NCBI GenBank assembly: GCA_017654855.1 | Contig: CM030332.1 | Location: forward strand, 3,844,001 to 3,908,000 | DNA: 64,000 bases | Direction: 5' to 3' | Source: Podospora anserina | Taxonomy: Eukaryota | Shown here: piece after piece, positions 422-41,451 of the stretch | Layout: the number at the start of each line of letters is the position of its first letter | How positions within the stretch are numbered: the stretch's first letter is position 1 | The notes under the pieces: generated by a model | Database searches by the model: none | Seen by the model: only the letters and a program-made list of their open reading frames with translations | Told to the model about the DNA's origin: nothing | Program-made: the position numbers and the translations under genes

Positions 422-2109
422 TTTTGCTGGTTCATTCGGTTCCACTATGAAGTCTTCAATTGCACACTTATGAAACACGCTGAGGTTGCAGATTTGGTAG
501 AAAACGAGCGATGAATTAATTGACTGCTGTTACAAGAAGTAGGGCAGGAGCGGTGTGAGCACGTCAGTCAAGACAGGAAGGAGTACGCAGGCGTCGCTGC
601 CTGGGAAGCTCTGAAGCTCGCCCACCTATCAGTCCACCCGGCCAGCTCTCCCCCGCAGCTTCATTGCAATTTCCCTTCTCGTATAGGACTCTTCTGCCTT
701 GTCATTAGTTTGCTTCTTGTGTGCTTGGCATCCTTTCAAATCTGGCGGACATTTATCACGGCCATAGGTTCTAGGATATGGGGAATGGAGGCATGGAAAA
801 TGGAAAAGTGACTACACCCTCATGTTTGATGTTGACAAGATATCTCACATGGAGCTTGAGGGCCAAATCAAGTTTAGCGCACGATCTCTGGGCAAGCTCG
901 GCAAGCTCCACCCCCGCATTTTCGGTGGACCCTGGACCCTGGCCATTTGCCCCACATCAACGTCGATCAACGACGACGACAACGATCCATATGACATCCC
1001 AAACATCCCATCAAGAGACGATGAAGGTCACGATAAGTGATATGATGTAGGCTTTAGCAGTCTCAAGTCGCCCATGTCGACGTACTGTTGACAAGCTAGA
1101 GCAGCCTTTTCGTCATTGACGGTTGAGGCTGGATGAAATCTAACGATTCAATGTAGCTCAGTTACTTGGCACATTCTGTCGCCTCAGGTGCACGATTCGG
1201 CATGTCCGAGATCTCAGTCCAACTCGGCCTCCAGATCGCACCTCCCATGATCGTGCTTTGTAAGGCGCATCCAGCACGGCCATATTTATCTGATGGAAAC
1301 ACGCCGCACAGCACCTACCGGCGCCGAAGACAAAGAAACTGCTGACCGGTGGTTGGTTATCCATCCATTCGCAATCCGTGGTCCTCAATTCAAGCCCCAG
1401 AGCTTTGCTTTAGGTAACCAAGTTGGAAACAGGGCGGGGTCAGACCTTCCTATGCATGTACACAACCGTTTCCATGTACATGCATCAAAGCCCTGCTTAT
1501 CACCACCACCCAAGGTAACACTTGACAAACGATGACATGACCTCCCGGACCCTGGGAAGCTCCGTTCTACCTCTCCCAGTTCCCACACTAGTAGGCCACT
1601 GCCCCGGACAATTATTTGAAAACAAAAAAAGAACGTTGCTGCTGGCTTGCATGACACCCACCCCTTCAGGGTCCAGAAAAGCGTCAAGTCCATTGATGAG
1701 ATCATCATGATTAGCTCACCCCCGGTCCCAATCGCAAGGTTCCAGCCCATGATCCATGATCTGAGGTAGGTAGGTAGCTTAGCTTTCCACCTCCGCTGAG
1801 AGACCGTCAGGAGTGGGCAGATGATAATGCAGTCGCACGCACCCCTTCTTTCTTCTTAAACCCCGCTCCTGCCCACAAATCTTTCCAAACCTTTCTTCTG
1901 TTCCCCTCCAAGCTCAACTCGAATACAAACACATCGTGAACACAAACCAGGGCTTTTCAACGGAGAGCTCTCTCAGGATCCACCTTTGTCGATAGTGTAA
2001 AACCCGATACTCGTAACACAATATTAACCGATTCACCTACCTCGAGCTATCCAAGGAAGCTCACCCTAACCAGCCTCACCCATCACCACCACAACAACAA
2101 CAAGACAGC

Positions 2110-2500
2110 ATGGCCGATAACATGCCCTCCGGCCCCGAGTTCCGCACCGGCCGCGCCGATTCCACCTCTTCTACTTCCTCCACCAGCACGACCAACACCG
2201 TCAACTCCAGCTCTGGGATGCCCAAGGCACCACCTCGCCGGGTAAGTTTATTTTCCAGCAAACCAACACAACAGCAGAGTACTAATCCCTCCCAAGAGAT
2301 CAAGCCACCTCTTCGAAGGCCTCGAAGCCCAAAAACGCTCCCAAGACCCGGCCGCAGTAGCAAGACGCCAGAGCATGAACGAACAACGGCCCAAGTCGGG
2401 CTTCATCGGCAGCATGTGGAACAAGTATGTCCTTTCCCCTACCATCTCATCTTCCACCTGTCTAAGCTGACCACCTATCAGCTGGGTCCACGGCCAGTAG
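2110..2500 (+). CDS. con-8: Small conidiation-specific protein 8 (CON-8)-like protein, 3 exons (2110-2241, 2297-2424, 2482-2500)
   Basis: Spliced product ends LFEGLEAQKRSQDPAAVARRQSMNEQRPKSGFIGSMWNNWVHGQ*, which resembles Neurospora CON-8 as recalled. Donors are GTAAGT and GTATGT, with CTAAT and CTGAC branch sites. Confidence 0.7.
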
Positions 2501-3996
2501 TAAAAATACTATACTGCTCCCCTCGGGGAGTTCATCAGAGGGCATGAAAAAGTCCCTCCTTGCTGTTGTTTCCGTTACAGGGTTTCGTTCGGGTCTGGTG
2601 TTCTTCTGATCATGGATGGCAATGCGGAAAGCACGAAAGCCTACCTACCTACTGCTGTTTTTTTTTTTTTTTTTTTGCAACTAATATTTCTCTTGTCTGA
2701 CAACAATGGCAAACTGCCCAAGACTGTTTTGCTTATCATACCTTACCTTACTTAATTTGATAAATGCGGAAAAAAAACTACAAACCTTGAATTAATCTGT
2801 CAGCTGCCCCTTTCTCATAGGGAGAGACGTTGTTTTTATATCAAACTTGGTACCTACTTTGGCCCGGCGAGTTGTGACCCCCTCTTCCCAGACGAACCTT
2901 TCATTAATCTTGTCCAAGGCTGATACTCCTACAGCATACGATATTCTTTTGAAAGACATCACTTGTTATCTCTAGTAGTCCCGACAGACACCCCCCGATA
3001 AGATCAACACCCAAGTCGACGTGAATGCCCTTGGAATTGCCCACTGAGATGGATGTATCGCATGCGTTTGAACATAACACAGCATGTTTGCCAAACTATT
3101 TCCCCCCGGCGGTCTTGAAATCAGGAAAGGGTTGATTGCCTGAACAGGGCCTTGTTTTGATTCATCTCAACTAATAATTACCCGCCTCTTGATCAAGCCA
3201 CCAAGTAATACCAAAGCCGTAAAGTGCTTCAGAGGCGGTGCTTGCTAGATATTTCCAATACACAAAGAAGCCCATCCTCTACAAACCACCTAGCTTGTTA
3301 ACTTACACAATGTGGTGATACCGGCGTCTTCTCTTCCACATGCTGGTTTTTTGCTGTGGGGAGCGTGGTGTGTTGATGAGCATTGGAACAGAATGGTGAA
3401 ACTGGCTCGGATGGTGGGTGCGCAGCAAGGTAAACAACACAACTGTCAACCTGTTGCCCTACTGTTCACCAGGTAGTTAGCCGTCTGCCAGCTCACCTAC
3501 ATACAACAAGGGTGTCTGACCAAGGCTGGTGCTCGCAAAGATTGAGATTGGTTAGGGTCCGGGTAGGTGGGAGGAGATGGTGGTGCCGTCGGACGGGATG
3601 CGATTATGGGGGTGTGTCGCTCAGGAAGAGGGATGTTGGATGCGGGCACGATCAGGAGGAGCAGGATTGGCGTTCCAAAAGGGAACGGTGAAGGACAGAG
3701 CATGTTTGGGCAGTTCTGGGCAAGGCACCACGGGGAAGCGAGGCAGGGAAGCGTGTTCAAGAGGGCAGGCAGGGAAGGTGGGAAATAAAAGCGATCATTA
3801 TCAAACCTCGGGTCCGTGAACTATAAATGAACAAAACCCCTCAGAAAATATTTTGCCGGGCAGAAACTGTACGAGATGCCAGAGCTTTTCCACCCTTCTC
3901 CCAACACCCCCAACGCCGTCCAAAAGTCGAAAGGAATAGGGGAATTATCGTTTGGTGGCATCGACCGGACCTGTGTTAAAAACTCGTTTCGTTCGG

Positions 3997-18146: not shown

Positions 18147-21100
18147 TTACTGCGTCCTATAAAACTTCTTATAAACCAAATGCAACAGCAAGTTCACATT
18201 CAGCTTCAAGCAACCCCCTTCAAACAGCTGCATAAACTGATGCGCCTCAAACTGCGCCTGCAGCAAGTCCTCAATCGGCACCAGCGCGCTCGCGCCAGGA
18301 ATCTGGATGTGTCCCCTGCTCCCCTCCAGGCTAAAAACGCCAACCTCGTCGCACGAGATGGTCAGGTTGATCTGCCCCCACTCCCTCTCCGGTATCCCCG
18401 CCCACGAGACCAACACCCCCTTGTCGTTGAGCGCGCGGGCGGAATACTTGTACGACCCAAACTTGGGCACCCGGCCGGACCGCTCCAGCTCCCGTTGGTG
18501 GTTGTACTGTTTTGTGAAGGGGAGGAGGAAGCGTTTTTTCCTGTTGCGAACAAAGTTAGCTTGTGTGTCAACACCGAGTAGAAAGGAGGAAAAACATACC
18601 CTTTCTTGTTCTGCAGCGTAGCCATGGCTTGCTCAATGTAGTCGTCGTATGACTTCCTCTGCTGCTCCAAATACCTCGCCTTCTCGTGCAAGTTACTCAA
18701 CGTCATCCTCACCCCCTCCAGCTCCCTCTGCCTCTGCACCCTCCTCCTGCTCTTCGTCCTGATGTCCAGGGCAATCGCATTCAGAATATCCTGATAGTAA
18801 TTATGCCTCGATATCCTCCCAATCTGCTCCAGCCTCATCACGTTCTCCAGCGCCATCCTCTTCAGCTCGTAATAGCTCATGCGCGTAACATCAACCATGT
18901 TCGCATCCGAGTACGCGCCCTTGGTGTTGCTCCCGTTGGAAAAGTCATCCCTCAGCAGCATCTGCCACTTGTGCTCGTCGTCCTGCGTGATGGGCTTCAC
19001 CAAGATCTCCATGAGGTTGGTGCCAGTTTGAACGCGAATGATGTACAAGATGCACCTCTTGGTCTCCATAAACAGCGCCTTGACTTCCGCGTCAGGGTCC
19101 GCCACATCGTGCAGCTTGGGCGTCAGAAACATTTGAATGTCGGTCGACCCGGCAGCCGTCATCTCGCTCTCGTTGTGCTTGGCGCTTCCCAGATCTTGCA
19201 TGATCTCCCGAAGCATATCATCCCTGTTCGGGCAGAGATGAATCAGCTCCGACGCGATCAAGTTGTGAATCGCAAAGATATCCGCCATCTTGATGTACAA
19301 CGTCGGCTTGTTCTTCGCGTAAAGATCGTTGTACTCATCAATATCAAACGTCCTCTCCGCATCCGGCACCGCAATCAACGCCTCCGTCAACCCCGTCAAC
19401 CGCTCAATGCTCTCCGCAATGAACGCATTCAACGGCTGGAGATAGACGTTATCCCCACCAAACTGCCTCCCCGAAGCCATCTGGCTGAGCACCTTGGCCA
19501 CCTCGCCCAGATTCCTCTTCTGGAGCGGGCTAAGCTGCTTCTCAACCACACCGACATTCTCCGGCGCCGTCAGCGCAGGTTGCAGATAGAACTTCCACAG
19601 CCAGTTCATCACCACGTTCAACAACCTGACCGGGTCCTCCCTCTGAAACCTCTGCCTCAACGCCTCGAAGATCTGCTTGCAGACAAACCGGAGCCCATAC
19701 GGCATCCTCGGCAGCAGATCCTCCAGCGCGAACAAAAACTGATCGCAAATCTCCCTCAAGTCGCGCAGGTGATCAATAAAGACTTGTTTGGTCTCCGGAT
19801 CCTTGATCGCAAGCTCTCGGGGAATGTCCAAAGGGCGACTGCTCGGCCGACCAGTCCTCAGCTCTTCGTTGTTGATGGCAGACCGGTAAATCTGCATAGG
19901 ATCGCTCTCCAGATCCAGCTCCGGGTCCTCGATGATATTGTCGCGGATCAAAGGACCAAGCAGATCCCGCAGGTACTTCCTGTCCCGCGGCGATCTGGTG
20001 TAGTTCTGCAGCAGCTTCGACCAGAAAAAGTTGCCCCTGAGATAATCCTGCAAACTATTGCAAGCATCCACCTCCTCCCCAATCGCCCTCCCAATAAGCT
20101 TCAGGAGATAATACTCCTCCCTCCTCTTCTGCGCATACCCAAACAGGCTCATCATCAGCAACTCAATCCTCTTGCACTCCTTCTCCGCCGTCCCCACCTC
20201 CCTCAGCCGCTTAAACAGCCTAGCCAGATACTGCGGCTGCGTCTGCAGCGCAAAAAACAGCTGCTGATACGACTCCAGCTTCTTCCTCGACCCCTTGTTC
20301 AGTGCCTTCAAATCAAACTGGTTGGCGCTCGACATGGAGCTATTCGCCAGCAGCGTCCCCGTATGGCCGCCATAGTTATGCTGATGCTTGACAACCTCAT
20401 CCAGCGTGATCTTGTTCTTGACCAGCAGCGCAATCTTGATATCGAGCTGGTCAATGTACTGCTCCAGCATCTCATTCTGGCGAACCTGCTGCACCACCGT
20501 CTTGCGCAGCCTTTCAAACTCCACCTCCTCGTTGAAGTCAAAGTCGCTGTCGTTCAACAGGTGGACAAAGTTCTTGACCGCATTGACCGGTGGGTTCTTC
20601 CCGCCGGTAAGACTCTTGTAGGCGTCGCCCTGCAGCTTGGCGCGGACCAAGCTCTGGATCTTTACCACCTTTTGCATGTTCTCGTTGAAGAACTTTTTCT
20701 TCTCTTCAAACTTGGCCCTGACGATGAACGCCTTTGCCGCAGCCTGGACTTCGGCAACGACGGCTTCATTCTCATCCAGTTCGTCAAGAACTTCAGCAAC
20801 GCTGCCGCGGAGAAGCATAGCCCTGGCAAGACCCTGCAGCGAGGCAATCTCCATCTCGTTCGTCTCGAGCTGGTCGAGAATCTCGCCTTGCTTCTGTCTG
20901 CAGAGCATCCCGCGCACCTGAGCCTGAAGCAGAGTAATCGACTCCTCCTGTTCAGCGAGCGCGTCGAGGAGGCCCGCAACGCGATTGCGCTCCAGCATGC
21001 CTCTGATCTGAGACTGCAAAGAGATGATATTCTCCTCCTCCTCACCCAGGGCCTCAAGCTGTTCCGAGATCTCCCTCCGCACGGCACCAGCCCTAACATA

Positions 21101-23500
21101 CGCCTGAAGCAAGCCCAGGCTTGGCTCCTGTTCCTTAAGCTCAGCCTCAATCCCCTTCACAGTGCTCCTAGCGACCTTGCCCCGGGTGGCAGCCTGCAGT
21201 GTCGTGAAAACCGGCTCAAAACTCTCCAGCGCCTCAAGCTGATCGGCAACACGGCTCCTTTCCAGCGCCGCCCTCGCAGCAGCTTGGATCCCAGTAATAG
21301 CCGGCATCGCCTCCTCCAGCGCAATCAGATCCCTCTCCACCTCCCTCCTAAGCAACATGCCCCTAACAGCAGCCTGCAACTTCTCCACCGGCGCCTCGCT
21401 CTGCCTCACCTCCCTCTGCTGCACCTCCATCTTCTTTCTCGCCAAAAACCCCCTCACCGTCGCCTGGATATCCCTAACCGGCCCCTCCTCCACATCCAAC
21501 TGCCCAAGCTGCTCCTGTATCCTCCTCCTCTCCAAAAACCCCCTAAACGTCGCCTGAATATCCCTCACCACACCACCCGCCATATCCAACTCGTCCAACT
21601 TCTCCCTCACCTCCCTCCTCGCCCTCACCGCCCTAAAAGCACTCTGCAGCTTCACCACCGCCGGCTCCGCCCTCTTGACCTCCCGTTCCCTCATCTCCCT
21701 CCCATTCCTAACCAACCACCCCCTAGCAGCAGCCTGCAGTTGCCTAACCACCCGCTCCCGCTCCAACTTCCACTCCACCACCTCTCTCATCATCCCCCCC
21801 CTAACCCTACTCTGCAAATCAACCAACCACTCCTCCTCCTCCCACAACCTCTCCATCATCTCCCCCAACCTCATCCTCGCCACCGCCCCCCTAACCTGCG
21901 CCTGCAACTCCCTCACACTCTCCTCCGCCTCCCCCAACTCCCTCTCCACCCTTTCCTCCTCCGTCTCCTCCTCCACCATCTCCTCCACCACCCCAAAATC
22001 AGCCCCCATATTCCCAAAACTAGGCATCGCCCCCCCCAGCTTATCCAACCCCCTCTGCATCTTCTCCAGCTCGCTATCCTCAAACTCCAACTGCCCAACC
22101 AAATTCCCAATCCTGAACCCCACCACCCCCTTCCGAAACAACAACCAGCTCAGCGCATGGATGCAGTGAATCACCTTGGGAATGTTCTTCTTCTCGTACA
22201 GGTCAATCAACTCAAACCTAAACAAGTCCGGCAGCTCAATCTCATCCAGATACCGAAAAAAAATCGCAATATTGTCGCTGTGCCGGTACTGCAACTTCGG
22301 GTTCCGAAAAATCTTGAACCTCCTCTCCGGGTTCAACGCCTCCACCACTTCCGCCAGAGTAACTCCATCCCGCAGGGCTTCCTCCAATTCCACAATCGGC
22401 GGGATCGCCCGCTGGATGATATCCTCGATCCACTCTTTTGCTTCGCCAATGTGGCAGAGGTATTCGTACGCTTGCAGAAACTGCCTCTGCCTGTCCATCC
22501 AGTTTCTGTTTTCCCAGCCAGACTTGGCCGCGGGCCGGTTTGATTTCAAACGGCGACGACCTCTCAACCCGACAACCTCTTGCGTGGCAGAAGTGATGGT
22601 ACTGAAATCGTCCGATTTGGCCAGCTTGGACAATGTTCGTAGTTCACTGGTCGAGGATCGCCCCAAACTTTCCAGATCCGGCCTAAGAATCGGTGCTACT
22701 GTGTGGGCGCTCAGCAGAGGGGGGGGCATGATGCCGACGTCGCTAGGTCGACGGGGTGCCATGACGGTGTCGGATCGAGTCAGAAGCATCGAAGTAGGAC
22801 GGACGACCGAGGGCCGGTGGTTGCCATGACCTGGGGGTGTTGGTGGGTTTGCCGCGGCCGGCGAGGTTGCTGGTACGAGGGAGCCGCGGCGGGGTGGTGT
22901 TGGAGGTTGTGGTGAGGTTGGCGGGGTTCGTTCACGAGGTGACGATAGCGACAGGCTGGCCATATCTAACCTGCCGACGTCGACGCTGCGGCCTCGGGAG
23001 TGGTGGCTGGGGATGGCATCAACATTCTGACCCAGATCATAGCGACTGTTACCGATGTCTACACTATAGCCTCGGTCACGGTGGCTGGGAGCGCGGGGTG
23101 GTGGTGTTAATGTCGTCGAAGAAGAAGTACCTGGTGGCACCTGGGGGAGTGGTCGGAGCGATTGACGAGCAGCCGAATAGATATTATCCGGTGTTGGTGT
23201 GGTGGGCGTAGAGGAATAACTATGAGAAGAACGAAGACTTGGAACCAAGTGGCTGGCCTCGCTTTGCCCTCTCTTGTGGCCGTATCCCGGGTTCGTGGTC
23301 GAGTAAACACTGGACGCGGCGGACATGGCGCTGGGGGCTCGACTTAGATTCAGATCGAAAGAAGCAGAAGACACATGGGAATAGCCCGACGAGGCAGATG
23401 AGGATGCTGTCGAGGGCTGGCGGTAAATATCGGAAGAGCGATAGTCGGCTGTGTGCGACTGGCGCAACGGGTGCGGCCTGTGCGACGACGACGACGGCAT
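18147..23500 (-). CDS. IQGAP-related cytokinesis scaffold (CH, many IQ repeats, RasGAP, RGCT); intron ~18541-18599
   Basis: CH region QAYEYLCHIGEAKEWIE...LRDGVTLA, ~30-aa-spaced LQxxxRGxxxR IQ motifs, and a GAP-related domain (KFYLQPALTAP). Iqg1/Rng2/SepG family. Confidence 0.95.
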
Positions 23501-24608
23501 TGTATGTGTGCTACTACCGTTGCTGTTGTTGTTTTGGCTCAAATTTCGGGTTGCACGGGATGGCAGTCGTCGACAACATTAGATCGCTGAATAGAACAGC
23601 TTCCTCTCCCTTGCTCAGAGTGCCAAGCAATGACGATGGGGGATCCTCTTTGGAGGGGTTGGGGTGAGGGGAGGGTTGGTTATGTGCCGGGTCGGTCGGT
23701 GTCTGATGGATGTCGATAATGTCTAGCGCCGAGCGAGCGCAAACACGTCCTGCTCTGCTCTGTCTATCCTTAAACAAACAGTACACGAAGTAAAAGGCAG
23801 AAAGAATCCTTGCCAATGCCAACGCCGGCGCACAGCGCAAAAAAAGTTCGGATGATGAATTGGTGGTTTAAAGAAGGGTCATTCTATACCAGTCGAGACT
23901 CGAGAGCCGCATGGAGAGCATGGAGGGGATGGATGATATTATCGAAGGTGTGGGAGGCCAATGACCAGGGGTGTCGGCCAGGTTTAGTGGTTGCGGCCTG
24001 AGAGGGGAACTGCCTTGTTTACATTTACCGGAGGGCGCCAGGGCAACGGGCTGACGGGACTTCATGTGTGTGGCTCGGTCCTACAAAATCCCGTTCCGCC
24101 CTGCGTCTACGGGTCCCCTGTGCCATGTAGATTAAGGGCATCTTGGGAACTGTGGTAGCACCAATTGTTTGGAAGCGAGACACGTGGTTGACCCGAAAAG
24201 TAAACAAGAAGGACTTAGAGATATCATGGAGCAATTGCTCTGTTATTTCAAGAGCTCTCATCTGAAGACGCATGACCGAGAATATGTGAGCTGCCCCGGA
24301 GCATCAATTTGAGTTGACGGAGTTCCAAGTCTAGCCAGGCCCGTGCGCCTAGAGCAGCACCGATGCTCCACCCCTGACACATTCACCGCCCGGCAATTGC
24401 CCCGCATCCCACCCACTCTAAAAATTTCTGGTGGCATAAAAAGATTTTCAGAGGCGACTCTGAGATTTTCTTTTCCTCTTCTCTTGGGGGGGAACAGTTG
24501 GCTGATTCTCAAAGGACCTGTCCTTTCTGTCTCCCCCCTCGCTCGCATCAACAATCTCTTGCTTCACAACCACCAGTCTATCCCACAGATCTCAGTCAAC
24601 GCGCAGAA

Positions 24609-26396
24609 ATGTCGTCCGACCAAGTTCTTGACTGGCGCAAGGCCGAGGAGGTGCTCAACGAGTACAAGAGTCGCGATGGCCTCAGTGTCCATGAGCTCAT
24701 GGACGCCAAGGCCCATGGCGGTCTCACCTACAACGACTTCCTTGTTCTCCCCGGCTACATTGGCTTCCCTGCCTCTGCCGTCACTCTCGACTCCAAGATC
24801 ACCAAGAAGATCACCCTGAAGACCCCTCTCGTGTCCTCGCCCATGGACACCGTCACCGAGCACGAGATGGCCATCCACATGGCCCTTCAGGGTGGTCTCG
24901 GTGTCATCCACCACAACTGCTCTCCCCAGGCCCAGGCCGACTTTGTCCGCAAGGTCAAGCGCTATGAGAACGGTTTTATCCTCGACCCCGTTGTCATCAG
25001 CCGTGAGACCACCGTCGGCGAGGCCAAGGCCCTCAAGGAGAAGTGGGGATTTGGTGGTTTTCCCGTCACAGGTTAGTTTTCTTGCTCTCCCCAACTCTCT
25101 CTGCCACATGATTACAAACCTTACTTTCGTTCCACCAAATCGACCTATGTGTCATGAGGACTCAATATCACTGAAAATTATGATCGTGGCACCATTCTAT
25201 CACTTTCTAAGCTCTGCAGCTCATCAAGGATTGCACGCTAACAAACTGTGATTACAGAGTCCGGCAAGCTCGGTTCCAAACTTTTGGGTATCGTCACCAA
25301 CCGTGACATCCAGTTCGAAGATGACTTTGAGAAGCCCATCTCCGAGGTCATGGTGACCGATCTCATCACGGCCCACGACGGTGTTGACCTCCTCGAGGCC
25401 AACAAGATCCTTGCTGCTTCCAAGAAGGGCAAGCTCCCAATCGTTGATTCCGATGGAAACCTCGTTTCAATGATTTCCCGCTCCGATTTGACTAAGAACC
25501 TCCACTTCCCCCTCGCTTCCAAGGCTGCCGACTCCAAGCAGCTCATCTGCGCCGCCGCCATCGGTACCCGTCCCGAGGACAAGGCCCGTCTTGCCGGCCT
25601 TGTTGAGGCTGGCCTCGACATTGTCATCCTGGACTCGTCTCAGGGTAACTCGATGTACCAGATCGAGATGATCAAGTGGATCAAGAACGAGTACCCTGAC
25701 CTCGAGGTCATTGGTGGCAACGTTGTCACCCGTGAGCAGGCTGCTGCTCTCATCGCCGCCGGTGTCGACGGTCTCCGTATTGGTATGGGCTCCGGCTCTG
25801 CCTGCATCACCCAGGAGGTCATGGCCGTCGGTCGTCCCCAGGCTACCTCCGTCTACAATGTTGCTGCTTTCGCCGCCAGATTCGGTGTTCCCTGCATTGC
25901 CGACGGTGGTGTCCAGAATGTTGGCCATATTGTCAAGGGCATTGCCCTTGGTGCCTCCACCGTCATGATGGGCGGTCTCCTTGCTGGTACCACCGAGTCT
26001 CCCGGTACTTCCTTCGTCTCCCGCGAGGGTAAGCTCGTCAAGGCCTACCGCGGCATGGGTTCCATCGACGCCATGCAGGACAAGAAGGCTGGTGGTGGTG
26101 GCAAGGACAGCCAGAAGAGCAATGCTGGCACTGCCCGCTACTTCTCCGAGGGCGACTCCGTCCTTGTTGCTCAGGGTGTCTCTGGTGCCGTTGCCCACCG
26201 TGGCTCCGTCAGCAAGTTCGTCCCCTACCTCGCTGCCGGTCTCAAGCACTCCCTCCAGGACATGGGCATGACCAGCGTCGAGGAGCTCCACAAGCAGGTC
26301 GAGGCCGGCATTGTCCGCTTCGAGATTCGCACCCCCAGCGCTCAGCTCGAGGGCGGTGTGAACATGGAGTCCTATGAGAAGAAGCTCTATGCTTAA
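24609..26396 (+). CDS. Inosine-5'-monophosphate dehydrogenase; intron 25072-25257
   Basis: SSPMDTVTE, a CBS pair, catalytic [10 protein letters not shown] and AYRGMGS. Confidence 0.97.
25102..25191 (+). ncRNA. Intronic box C/D snoRNA (snR54-like 18S guide plus a 25S guide)
   Basis: Terminal stem TGCCAC/GTGGCA; C box ATGATTA (25108); guide ACTTTCGTTCC (25123-33); D' CCAA; C' ATGAGGA (25154); guide CACTGAAAAT (25169-78); D box ATGA (25180). Both guides are antisense to conserved rRNA segments as recalled. Confidence 0.8.
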
Positions 26397-38714: not shown

Positions 38715-41451
38715 ATGCTTCTTGTACCGAGAGAGGTTAGTCAGTCAGTCACACACACCATGCCCAGCCAGTCCCTCACACCCAACCCATTTGACATGCA
38801 GCCGTGGTGTTCATCCCATCTTCTTCTTCTCACCAACTGAAACTGACAAAAACGAAAGCTCGACAAGCTCACAATCTCCCACCTCGGCTTCCTCGCCCAG
38901 CGGCGTCTCGCCCGCGGCTTGAAGCTGAACCACTCTGAGGCTGTAGCGCTCATCTCGTCCAACATCCAGGAGCTGATCCGCGACGGGAACCATGTCGTCT
39001 CTGACCTCATGTCCCTCGGGTCGACGATGCTAGGTCGACGGCACGTCCTGCCGAGTGTGCTGTCGACGCTGCATGAGATACAGATCGAGGGGACGTTTCC
39101 TAGCGGTACTTACCTCGTCACGGTGCACAACCCCATCTCCTCTGATGATGGTAACCTCGACAGGGCGTTGTATGGGAGTTTTCTGCCTGTGCCGAGCAAT
39201 GATGCGTTTCCGGCGCCACCGGCAGAGGAATATGCGCCTGAAGCCCAGCCCGGAGCGGTGGTTTGCGTCAAGGATGCCGTGGTGAGGCTGAATGAAGGGA
39301 GGAGGAGGATCAAGCTCCAGGTGACGAGCAAGGGGGATAGGCCGGTGCAGGTCGGGTCTCATTATCACTTTGTGGAAGTCAACCCCGAGTTGGAATTTGA
39401 TCGGATTGCGGCGGTAGGGTACAGGTTGGATATCGCTGCCGGGACGTCTGTTCGGTTTGAGCCGGGGGACAAAAAGACTGTCACGCTGGTTGAGATTGGG
39501 GGGCATAAGGTTATTAGAGGGGGGAACAGAATCGCGAACGGGGTGGTGGAGGAGACGAGGAAGAATCCTGACGAGATTGTCAAACGGCTGTTGGATATGG
39601 GCTTTGCTCACACGCCGCAGAAGGATATTGTTGAGTTTATGGAGGGGTTTACGATGGATAGGCGGGCGTATAATACCATGTTTGGGCCGACAACCGGAGA
39701 TCTTGTGAGGCTGGGGGCGACGGATCTGTGGATCAAGGTTGAGAGGGATTATACGGTTTATGGGGAGGAGTGTAAGTTTGGTGGTGGCAAGACGCTTCGT
39801 GAGGGGATGGGGCAGGCGACCGGGCGGTCGGATAGGGATACGCTTGATCTGGTGGTGACGAATGCATTGGTTGTGGACTGGACGGGGATTTACAAGGCGG
39901 ACATTGGGGTTAAGGAGGGGTTTATTGTCGGGATTGGCAAGGCAGGGAATCCGGATGTGATGGATGGGGTGACGGAGGGGATGGTGGTGGGGAGCTGTAC
40001 GGATGTTATTGCTGGTGAGGGCAAGATTATCACTGCGGGTGGGATTGATACGCATATTCACTTCATCTGCCCTCAACAGGCGGAGGAAGCTCTGGCCTCT
40101 GGAGTCACTACTTTCCTTGGTGGTGGTACAGGTCCCAGGTAAGCAGCCTTTCCCCCTCCCTCCCCCTTTTTTTTTTCTTTTTTTTTTTTTCGTTAACCCC
40201 CTATCCCACCACATCACTAACCCAGCCCCCTTTTCCAGCGCCGGCACCAACGCAACAACCTGCACCCCCGGCGCGCACTACATGAAACAAATGCTCCAGG
40301 CAACCGACTCCCTCCCCATCAACATCGGCATCACAGGCAAAGGCAACGACTCGGACCCCCTCGCAATCAGAGAACAAATCGCCGCCGGCGCCTGCGGCCT
40401 CAAACTCCACGAAGACTGGGGGACCACCCCGGCCGCCATCGACACTTGTCTTTCCGTCTGCGACGAAATGGACGTCCAGTGCATGATCCACACCGACACC
40501 CTCAACGAAGCCGGCTTCGTCGAAACCGCCGTCGCCGCCTTTGCCAACCGCACAATCCACACCTACCACACCGAAGGCGCCGGCGGGGGCCACGCCCCAG
40601 ACATCATCTCTGTGGTCGAACACCCCAACGTGCTACCCTCCTCCACGAACCCAACCCGCCCCTTCACCCTCAACACCCTGGACGAACACCTCGACATGTT
40701 GATGGTCTGCCACCACCTAAGCAAAAACATCCCCGAAGACGTCGCGTTTGCCGAGTCCCGCATCAGAGCCGAGACCATCGCCGCAGAGGATGTCCTTCAC
40801 GACCTCGGCGCGATCAGCATGATGTCCTCCGACTCCCAAGCCATGGGCCGTTGCGGGGAGGTCATTCTCAGAACGTGGAACACCGCCCACAAGAATAAAC
40901 TCCAACGCGGCCCGTTGCCCGAAGATGCCCCCACCGGCTGCGACAATGTCAGGGTTAAACGATATGTGTCAAAGTATACCATCAACCCCGCCATCGCCCA
41001 AGGCTTCTCCCACCTGATCGGGAGCATCGAAGTCGGCAAACTAGCCGATTTTGTCGTCTGGGATCCGGCCTGGTTTGGGACGAAGCCGAGCTTGGTGGTG
41101 AAATCGGGCTTGATTGCGGTGGCCATGATGGGGGATCCGAATGCCAGCATACCGACCATTCAGCCGGTGGTTGCGAGGCAGATGTTTGCTAGGGATTTGC
41201 CCGGTGCGAGTGTGGTTTTTGTGAGCAAGGAGAGTGTTGAGAACGGGAATATAAAGAGTTATGGGCTGAGGAAGAGGGTGAGCGCGGTGAGGGGGTGTAG
41301 GGGGATTGGGAAGAGGGATATGAAGTGGAATGATAAGATGCCGAGGATGAGGGTTGATCCGGAGAGGTATGTGGTTGAGGCGGACGGGAAGAGGTGTGAG
41401 GCGGAGCCGAGTGAGAAACTGCCGTTGACGCAGGGGTATTTTGTTTATTAA
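38715..41451 (+). CDS. URE1: Urease (fused gamma-beta-alpha chain); exons 38715-38735, 38859-40138, 40239-41451
   Basis: [67 protein letters not shown]. Confidence 0.97.

Follow-up and report, generated by a model that had tools for sequence, protein, structure and literature searches.

Introduction

The box C/D small nucleolar RNA (snoRNA) snR54 of Saccharomyces cerevisiae is encoded in the intron of IMD4, a location that had been given in the initial annotation of the DNA considered here and that is confirmed in print. In Neurospora crassa, Nc CD49 is listed as a 91-nt intronic RNA of chromosome I, which targets 18S-Am971 by its D′ guide and 26S-Um2682 by its D guide (Liu 2009, BMC Genomics 10:515, PMC2780460). 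Here we describe what is very probably the Podospora anserina counterpart of these RNAs, an element of about 90 nt in an intron of the IMP dehydrogenase (IMPDH) gene. It lies in a stretch of 64,000 nt (assembly GCA_017654855.1, contig CM030332.1, positions 3,844,001 to 3,908,000 of the forward strand), which we call the window and whose own numbering is used throughout.

For the 18S site of Nc CD49, Liu (2009) lists as homologues snR54 of S. pombe and S. cerevisiae and U59 of plants and humans, and the likeness of the window RNA to human SNORD59A/B (U59) and plant U59 consists of this listing for the 18S site only. For the 26S site, Table 1 of the same paper gives a match of 12/0 at box D, with snR67 as the S. 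cerevisiae homologue. The expression code of Nc CD49 is ‘N, R’, that is, northern and reverse transcription; because the code C (cDNA library) is absent, we read this RNA as a candidate from the snoscan screen. The sequences of that study are deposited under GenBank EU780925-EU780999 and given in its Additional file 1. The D target of yeast snR67, Sc 25S-2724, has been shown experimentally; within the snR67 family only Saccharomycotina have retained it, and in Sordariales it is predicted for the snR54 family (CD_49) (Canzler 2018). A guide function has thus moved between snoRNA families in fungal evolution, the Um2724-type target residing in snR67 in yeasts and in snR54/CD49 in Sordariales, as already published (Liu 2009; Canzler 2018). 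The kind of snoRNA, its dual function and its clade are all in print, and the initial description of the Podospora RNA as hidden does not survive, nor is the RNA new: Nc CD49 appears with both targets in Liu (2009), and the 25S target of the snR54 family appears in Canzler (2018). The Podospora genome paper lists 13–15 snoRNAs, unnamed in the part covered.

Results

A predicted box C/D snoRNA in an oversized IMPDH intron

Direct reading of the window from 24700 to 25600 recovered every box, guide and stem strand of the initial annotation (Table 1). Boxes C (AUGAUUA) and D (AUGA) each differ by one base from the consensus (RUGAUGA and CUGA), and are flanked by a 6-bp stem. The element therefore has the general layout of a box C/D RNA, with box C near the 5′ end, box D near the 3′ end and a terminal stem. 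The fifth base upstream of box D is A25175. A search for the two-guide pattern gave a single occurrence in the window and none in 100 dinucleotide shuffles, and the 6-bp terminal duplex reaches −9.5 kcal/mol, compared with −2.4 ± 1.5 kcal/mol for shuffled flanks, with no equal among 200 shuffles.

The host intron is 186 nt long, as annotated at the outset, and has IMPDH exons on both sides. The protein encoded by exon 2 shares 99% identity with an IMPDH cluster that bears the name Podospora pseudocomata, followed among the matches by other Sordariales, and the matches to this protein carry precomputed Pfam domains PF00478 and PF00571; the host is therefore the IMPDH of a Podospora-like fungus (Sordariales). 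A counterpart of exon 1 is present upstream of the snoRNA in homologous loci as well. A splice join from 25069 to 25257 was found in RNA contigs of a relative of about 92% identity (three soil metatranscriptome runs from three studies), which support the intron borders only weakly because they are another organism's contigs. They hold the relative's spliced mRNA and none covers the intron, so that they are uninformative on the snoRNA.

By comparison, a second IMPDH intron in relatives measures about 52–65 nt (L007 59, L011 62, L015 61, L023 65 and L032 52), lengths having been taken only where the tblastn pieces abut cleanly. Most relatives have this second, short intron near residue 315 of exon 2, as compared in L007, L010, L011, L015, L023, L032, L034 and L036; the window frame, in contrast, is continuous at this site (25260–26393, + strand). 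As annotation at Rfam thresholds misses the snoRNA gene, adding it accounts for the unusual length of this IMPDH intron in Podospora and related fungi.

Table 1. Predicted snoRNA and its host gene in the window
Feature	Position	Strand	Remarks
IMP dehydrogenase exon 1	24609..25071	+	open frame, translation MSSDQV...FGGFPVT plus first base of a split Glu codon
Host intron, 186 nt	25072..25257	+	from sequence; GTTAGT...ACAG, GT..AG; splits the Glu codon after ...FGGFPVT
Predicted box C/D snoRNA gene, ~90 nt	25102..25191	+	probable counterpart of Neurospora Nc CD49 / snR54 family
5′ terminal-stem strand UGCCAC	25102..25107	+	pairs with 25186–25191 in minimum free energy (MFE) and centroid folds
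Box C AUGAUUA	25108..25114	+	U instead of G at position 6
Guide 1 (D′ guide) ACTTTCGTTCC	25123–25133	+	extended pairing region 25119..25133
Box D′ CCAA, degenerate	25135..25138	+	column aligned to CuGA of Rfam snR54 consensus
Conserved internal block AUCGACCUAUGUGUC	25139..25153	+	nearly invariant in 18 aligned rows
Box C′ AUGAGGA, degenerate	25154..25160	+	aligned to uUGuaGA of snR54 consensus
Guide 2 (D guide) CACTGAAAAT(T)	25169..25179	+	CACTGAAAATT in DNA, CACUGAAAAUU in RNA
Box D AUGA	25180..25183	+	A instead of C at position 1
3′ terminal-stem strand GUGGCA	25186..25191	+	
Putative branch site CTAAC in host intron	25238–25242	+	from sequence
IMP dehydrogenase exon 2	25258..26396	+	last two bases of the Glu codon, SGKLG... 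up to stop

The D′ guide matches the snR54 site of a Sordariomycete 18S rRNA

For comparison with 18S rRNA we used a fungal ribosomal DNA (rDNA) contig, L054, which contaminates a bacterial assembly and was found with the ITS4 primer; its 18S gene occupies positions 1278–3072 by Rfam. Its internal transcribed spacer we take to be Hypocreales-like. The only perfectly complementary 11-mer between the snoRNA and this 18S rRNA pairs 25123–25133 with 18S 968–978, and beyond these 11 pairs one U.U mismatch is followed by three further pairs. The best duplex of the guide region has −22.4 kcal/mol, compared with −15.4 kcal/mol at the next site. The fifth base upstream of CCAA, U25130, faces A971 under the +5 rule, and 971 is also the site number listed for the D′ target of Nc CD49 (Liu 2009). 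Guide 1 thus joins a complementarity of at least 10 nt to the fifth-base register, and it does so at the site equivalent to yeast Am974 and in the register of the snR54 family, so that the proposed assignment of this guide to the A974 equivalent stands. For Nc CD49 the corresponding match is 13/0, which differs from the 11 perfect pairs, one mismatch and three more pairs of the window RNA.

Extra pairing with pre-rRNA has been listed for yeast snR54 (van Nues 2011). When the internal block and the remaining non-guide segments of the window RNA were scanned against 18S and the first 941 nt of the large-subunit (LSU) rRNA, no outstanding site emerged near the target, for which reason the ‘extra base-pairing’ idea was not adopted here; the block may serve either the fold of the C′/D′ motif or extra pre-rRNA pairing of the kind listed for yeast snR54.

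Eukaryotic rDNA (small-subunit, 5.8S and LSU genes by Rfam) was present in five contigs, L054, L077, L060, L067 and L074, which are filed under actinomycete or other bacterial assemblies and which we regard as contamination for that reason. L054 and L077 have identical flanks and 98.8% identity over 18S, the two visible differences around the target site both being transitions. The same ITS4 primer search returned nothing from viral contigs.

The D guide corresponds to that of snR67

Over its 11 nt the D guide CACUGAAAAUU agrees exactly with the Rfam snR67 consensus CACUGAAAAUU-CUGA, and it stands at the same distance from box D, in the same register; by this identity guide 2 is predicted to address the site of snR67, equivalent to Sc 25S-Um2724. 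The targets agree with those of Nc CD49, and the initial proposal of a second guide of the snR67 type is upheld. None of the contaminant rDNA contigs reaches the 25S target region, and a search of seven assemblies for the exact 11-nt guide-2 motif gave only two chance matches outside rRNA. Because snR67 keeps its D target only in Saccharomycotina (Canzler 2018), no other guide is known for this 25S site in Sordariales. With a D′ guide to 18S and a D guide to 25S, one RNA would therefore do the job of two yeast snoRNAs.

Homologues share the intron, the boxes and an internal block

A metagenome scan, with a pattern that demanded only the two guide cores and a gap of 20–50 nt, returned 37 loci, which resolve into 23 homologues (L001–L007, L010–L013, L015, L016, L018, L020, L021, L023, L027, L028, L032–L034 and L036) and 14 unrelated chance matches. 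When searched by tblastn with the two exons of the window, all 23 homologues proved to be sense-strand elements of this one IMPDH intron, 20 loci showing both exons and L020, L027 and L034, which are cut by contig ends, showing one; IMPDH was found at none of the 14 chance loci. An IMPDH intron as host is a trait shared with the snR54 family. The nearest named IMPDH proteins are from Sordariales for most loci, from Coniochaeta for L011 (95%) and from Phialemonium for L015 (88%), by protein likeness only.

The C box ATGATTA, which was not demanded by the search pattern, is present in 23 of 23 homologues. The box directly after guide 2 reads ATGA in 20 of them and CTGA in two (L002 and L028), and in L020 it is cut after ATG by the contig end. 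Box D′ is CCGU, CCGA, CCUA or CUUA in the homologues and box C′ is AUGGGGA in most, and between these two boxes stands a near-invariant block, TCGACCTATG[T/C]GTCATG[G/A/C]GG.

Among the 18 distinct homologues the intron is 180–233 nt long with GT..AG borders, and box C begins 35–76 nt from the 5′ splice site. From box D to the last CTRAY motif, which would hold the branch adenosine, the distance is 52–68 nt in these 18 introns and 58 nt in the window, the latter counted by hand. In mammals, intronic box C/D RNAs need a fixed distance of about 50 nt between snoRNA and branch point for efficient processing.

For alignment (A1) we kept 18 of 24 sequences, leaving out the identical copies L003, L006 and L013, the loci L020 and L027 at contig ends, and L034, which is identical to L023 over the span. 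Box C AUGAUUA is invariant in all 18 rows. The terminal stems vary yet pair, as UGCCAC/GUGGCA, GGGCUUC/GAAGCCC, GCUUC/GAAGC, GUUUC/GAAAC, GUGUUC/GAACGC and GGUC/GACC, and for 12 of the 18 flank pairs no more than 5% of shuffles pair equally well. Because the stems do not keep one register to the boxes across the homologues, they are reported as duplexes of the individual sequences. The base 5′ of box C equals the base 3′ of box D (G/G, U/U or A/A) in 11 of the 18 flank pairs, several of these rows being close relatives; the window differs at these positions (25107/25184, C/U).

Comparison with the Rfam models

No Rfam match was obtained at the snoRNA locus at gathering thresholds. The homologue L012 resembles the yeast form more closely in its guide-1 flank; it scores 28.3 bits (E 0.016) with snosnR54 (RF00473), below the gathering score of 50, and 13.7 bits with snR67 (RF01177), the D guide and box D being aligned. 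The snR54 consensus ...UAACUUUCGUUCU-A-CuGA... aligns base for base to ...UAACUUUCGUUCC-A-CCGU... of L012, and the CCGU column of L012 is CCAA in the window in alignment A1; the box D′ first proposed, and with it the target base, are therefore those of the snR54 family. The D′ guide of the family, UAACUUUCGUUC, and its spacing to D′ match base for base, as shown in this homologue. The family differs in its boxes, with AUGAUGA, CuGA (D′) and CUGA in the consensus against AUGAUUA, CCAA and AUGA in the window; at box C the canonical AUGAUGA thus stands where the clade has AUGAUUA. The D-side region of the snR54 consensus is not a 25S guide, unlike that of the window RNA. The RF00473 model was built on yeast-type sequences, and its gathering score is reached by neither the window nor L012.

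The window RNA does not belong to the snR67 family: its score stays below 55 bits, and its D′ guide targets 18S, not the 25S site Sc 2619 that is served by the D′ guide of snR67 (Canzler 2018). What the window does score with this model comes almost wholly from CACUGAAAAUU and [C/A]UGA at the 3′ end. The window RNA would thus work like snR67 in its D guide and is otherwise unrelated to it.

There was also a weak match to the Caenorhabditis family ceN56 (RF01643, 13.6 bits), which has in common with the window RNA UGAUUACAAAC behind the 5′ stem and, ahead of the 3′ stem, an AUGA box. This unrelated nematode RNA family may thus have the U6/A1 box pair as well.

Box pairs and the question of compensation

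In the kink-turn (K-turn) of box C/D RNAs, position 6 of box C pairs with position 1 of box D. The window combines U at the former with A at the latter, so that U-A takes the place of G-C in the non-canonical stem; the possible pairs are A25180-U25113 and U25179-A25114, with G25158/G25159 facing C25136/C25135 in the C′/D′ motif. Across the 18 rows, C6 with D1 is U-A in 16 and U.C in two, C7 with the base before box D is A-U in 18, D′1 with C′6 is C-G in 16 and U-G in two, and D′2 with C′5 is C-G in 18. A hairpin is possible within the internal block, between GAC (25142–25144) and GUC (25151–25153), and is paired by RNAalifold. In these rows no two-sided change was found in any box pair or in the internal helix, and shuffles equal the observed values, the tested columns being invariant or changed on one side only. 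The data are thus consistent with pairing without proving it.

The covariation of boxes that was first proposed is accordingly sustained in part. Set against the snR54 family consensus, the combination of C6-U and D1-A fits a compensated K-turn; within the clade there is no two-sided change, the pair is U.C in two loci, and the C′/D′ columns are invariant apart from the U-G rows. The two loci with the variant C box AUGAUUA and a canonical D box CUGA are L002:4087-4185 (−) and L028:3500-3598 (+), and their U.C state may be an intermediate on the way to the compensated pair or the result of its reversal.

In fungal snoRNAs position 1 of box D is substituted in 4.2%, usually by A, whereas every other position of box C and box D is conserved to at least 99.7% in the filtered set (Canzler 2018). 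By these frequencies AUGA is a known minor form of box D, and U at position 6 of box C is rare. No statement on the AUGAUUA/AUGA pair was seen in the covered literature on the snR54/IMD4 intron and on the snoRNAs of Neurospora crassa and Podospora anserina, from which supplements are excluded, and we do not claim the pair as unpublished.

Discussion

We consider it very probable that the IMPDH intron encodes a box C/D snoRNA of about 90 nt, the Podospora counterpart of Nc CD49 in the snR54/U59 lineage, and that this RNA serves both rRNA sites. By established snoRNP (small nucleolar ribonucleoprotein) biology, it would be transcribed within the IMPDH pre-mRNA and released by splicing. Exonucleolytic trimming would then proceed back to ends protected by snoRNP proteins assembled on the C/D kink-turn beside the short terminal stem. 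Pairing of the D′ guide with 18S would place the methyltransferase on A971 (yeast A974, human A1031), and pairing of the D guide with 25S/26S would direct 2′-O-methylation of the U served by yeast snR67 (Sc U2724, Nc U2682), Nop1/fibrillarin presumably acting opposite the fifth nucleotide upstream of D′ and of D. Nc CD49 and the window RNA are alike in order (Sordariales), in size (91 and about 90 nt), in being intronic and in having the same two targets at the same boxes.

Several observations weigh against this interpretation. The Infernal/Rfam comparison proposed in the initial annotation had a mixed outcome: under permissive settings the window reaches 15.7 bits with snR67, for which the gathering score is 55, and has no match with snR54 at E ≤ 10, a likeness to the latter model appearing only through L012. 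The folding of the whole RNA is no better than that of shuffles (z 0.33) and gives no support. For 6 of the 18 flank pairs the terminal stem does not exceed chance, as more than 5% of shuffled flanks pair equally well. The 18S rRNA of L054 is that of another Sordariomycete and not of this organism, the 25S target is named from the Rfam consensus and the literature, and the guide cores are conserved among the homologues by construction of the search pattern. Orthology to Nc CD49 we infer from targets, size, location and taxonomy. Finally, the IMPDH locus was not found in one RNA run of the same organism, one of three candidate runs. As to the folding, box C/D RNAs usually fold no better than shuffles, since their guides stay single-stranded.

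Part of this bears on whether both guides are used. If only the D′ guide of a functional snR54-type snoRNA were at work, the complementarity of the D guide to 25S being unused or redundant with another snoRNA, the way in which the 25S pairing was derived and the enforced conservation of the guide-2 core would raise no difficulty, and it is in keeping with such a view that the snoRNA family serving the 25S site differs among fungi (Canzler 2018). Against it stand the exact agreement with the snR67 consensus, in the 11 nt of the guide as in the distance to box D, the listing of 26S-Um2682 with 12/0 pairing for Nc CD49, and the retention of the D target in snR67 only in Saccharomycotina together with its prediction for the snR54 family in Sordariales, and we regard use of the D′ guide alone as improbable. 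The position of box D is a related matter, as a canonical CUGA lies inside guide 2 (25171–25174) and cmscan placed the D box of the snR54 model on this embedded CUGA in L012. Were this the true box D, the RNA would be a single-guide form of snR54 and the downstream AUGA and stem would be incidental. The bases upstream of the embedded CUGA vary freely among homologues and hence are not a guide, whereas in 22 of 23 loci the D guide is followed, always at one distance, by [A/C]UGA (the remaining locus, where the contig ends, reads AUG), the downstream place holds a canonical CUGA in two loci, and the terminal stem begins 2–3 nt past the downstream box and not past the embedded one. A box D inside guide 2 is thus very unlikely.

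Equally hard to credit is that the conserved segment is a regulatory element of IMPDH, controlling splicing or expression, rather than a stable snoRNA. That all 23 homologues confine it to a single intron of a single gene would suit such an element, as would the failure to find the locus in the RNA run from this species. It would leave unexplained why two rRNA sites are matched exactly and in the +5 register, as well as the box C/D layout and the likeness to the snR54 and snR67 models, and for the Neurospora counterpart detection by northern and reverse transcription is listed (Liu 2009).

Beyond annotation the importance of the locus is small, and little of it remains new: the U6-A1 pair with its U.C exceptions, the invariant internal block, and a hint of an extension to Coniochaeta-like and Phialemonium-like lineages. 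The expectation that scanners tuned to consensus boxes could miss the RNA is true at Rfam thresholds; it would not hold for snoscan if the Neurospora gene has the same boxes. The further suggestion, that the arrangement ties GTP synthesis to rRNA modification, is speculation.

We put forward only tentatively, and would not be surprised to see it fail, a joint reading of the box data. In this reading the Sordariales-type snR54/CD49 clade would have replaced G6-C1 of the kink-turn by U6-A1 for good, with U6.C1 in L002 and L028 as intermediates or reversals. The C′/D′ motif would be a fixed non-canonical fold with two Watson-Crick C-G pairs and the GAC/GUC hairpin, in an invariant block of 21 nt, and the dual-guide form would reach Coniochaeta-like and Phialemonium-like lineages, on IMPDH likeness alone, beyond the ‘Sordariales’ in print. 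If true, the U6-A1 replacement would be a natural compensatory experiment on snoRNP assembly, under-detected by consensus-tuned scanners. In itself the clade-wide combination of U6 in box C and A1 in box D is a small addition, which could be used to test the box requirements of snoRNP assembly.

Other features of the window

The sole Rfam match of the window at gathering threshold is 5_ureB_sRNA (RF02514) at 39795–40089 on the minus strand (59.2 bits, E 7.8e-13), which in a fungus is most probably due to conservation of the urease coding sequence on the opposite strand rather than to a small RNA. Just upstream of IMPDH, on the opposite strand, lies a long open frame (18362–23578, −) of 1738 amino acids from stop to stop. 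On visual inspection it may encode an IQGAP-like protein, with IQ-like motifs in repeats and a C-terminal part that resembles RasGAP.

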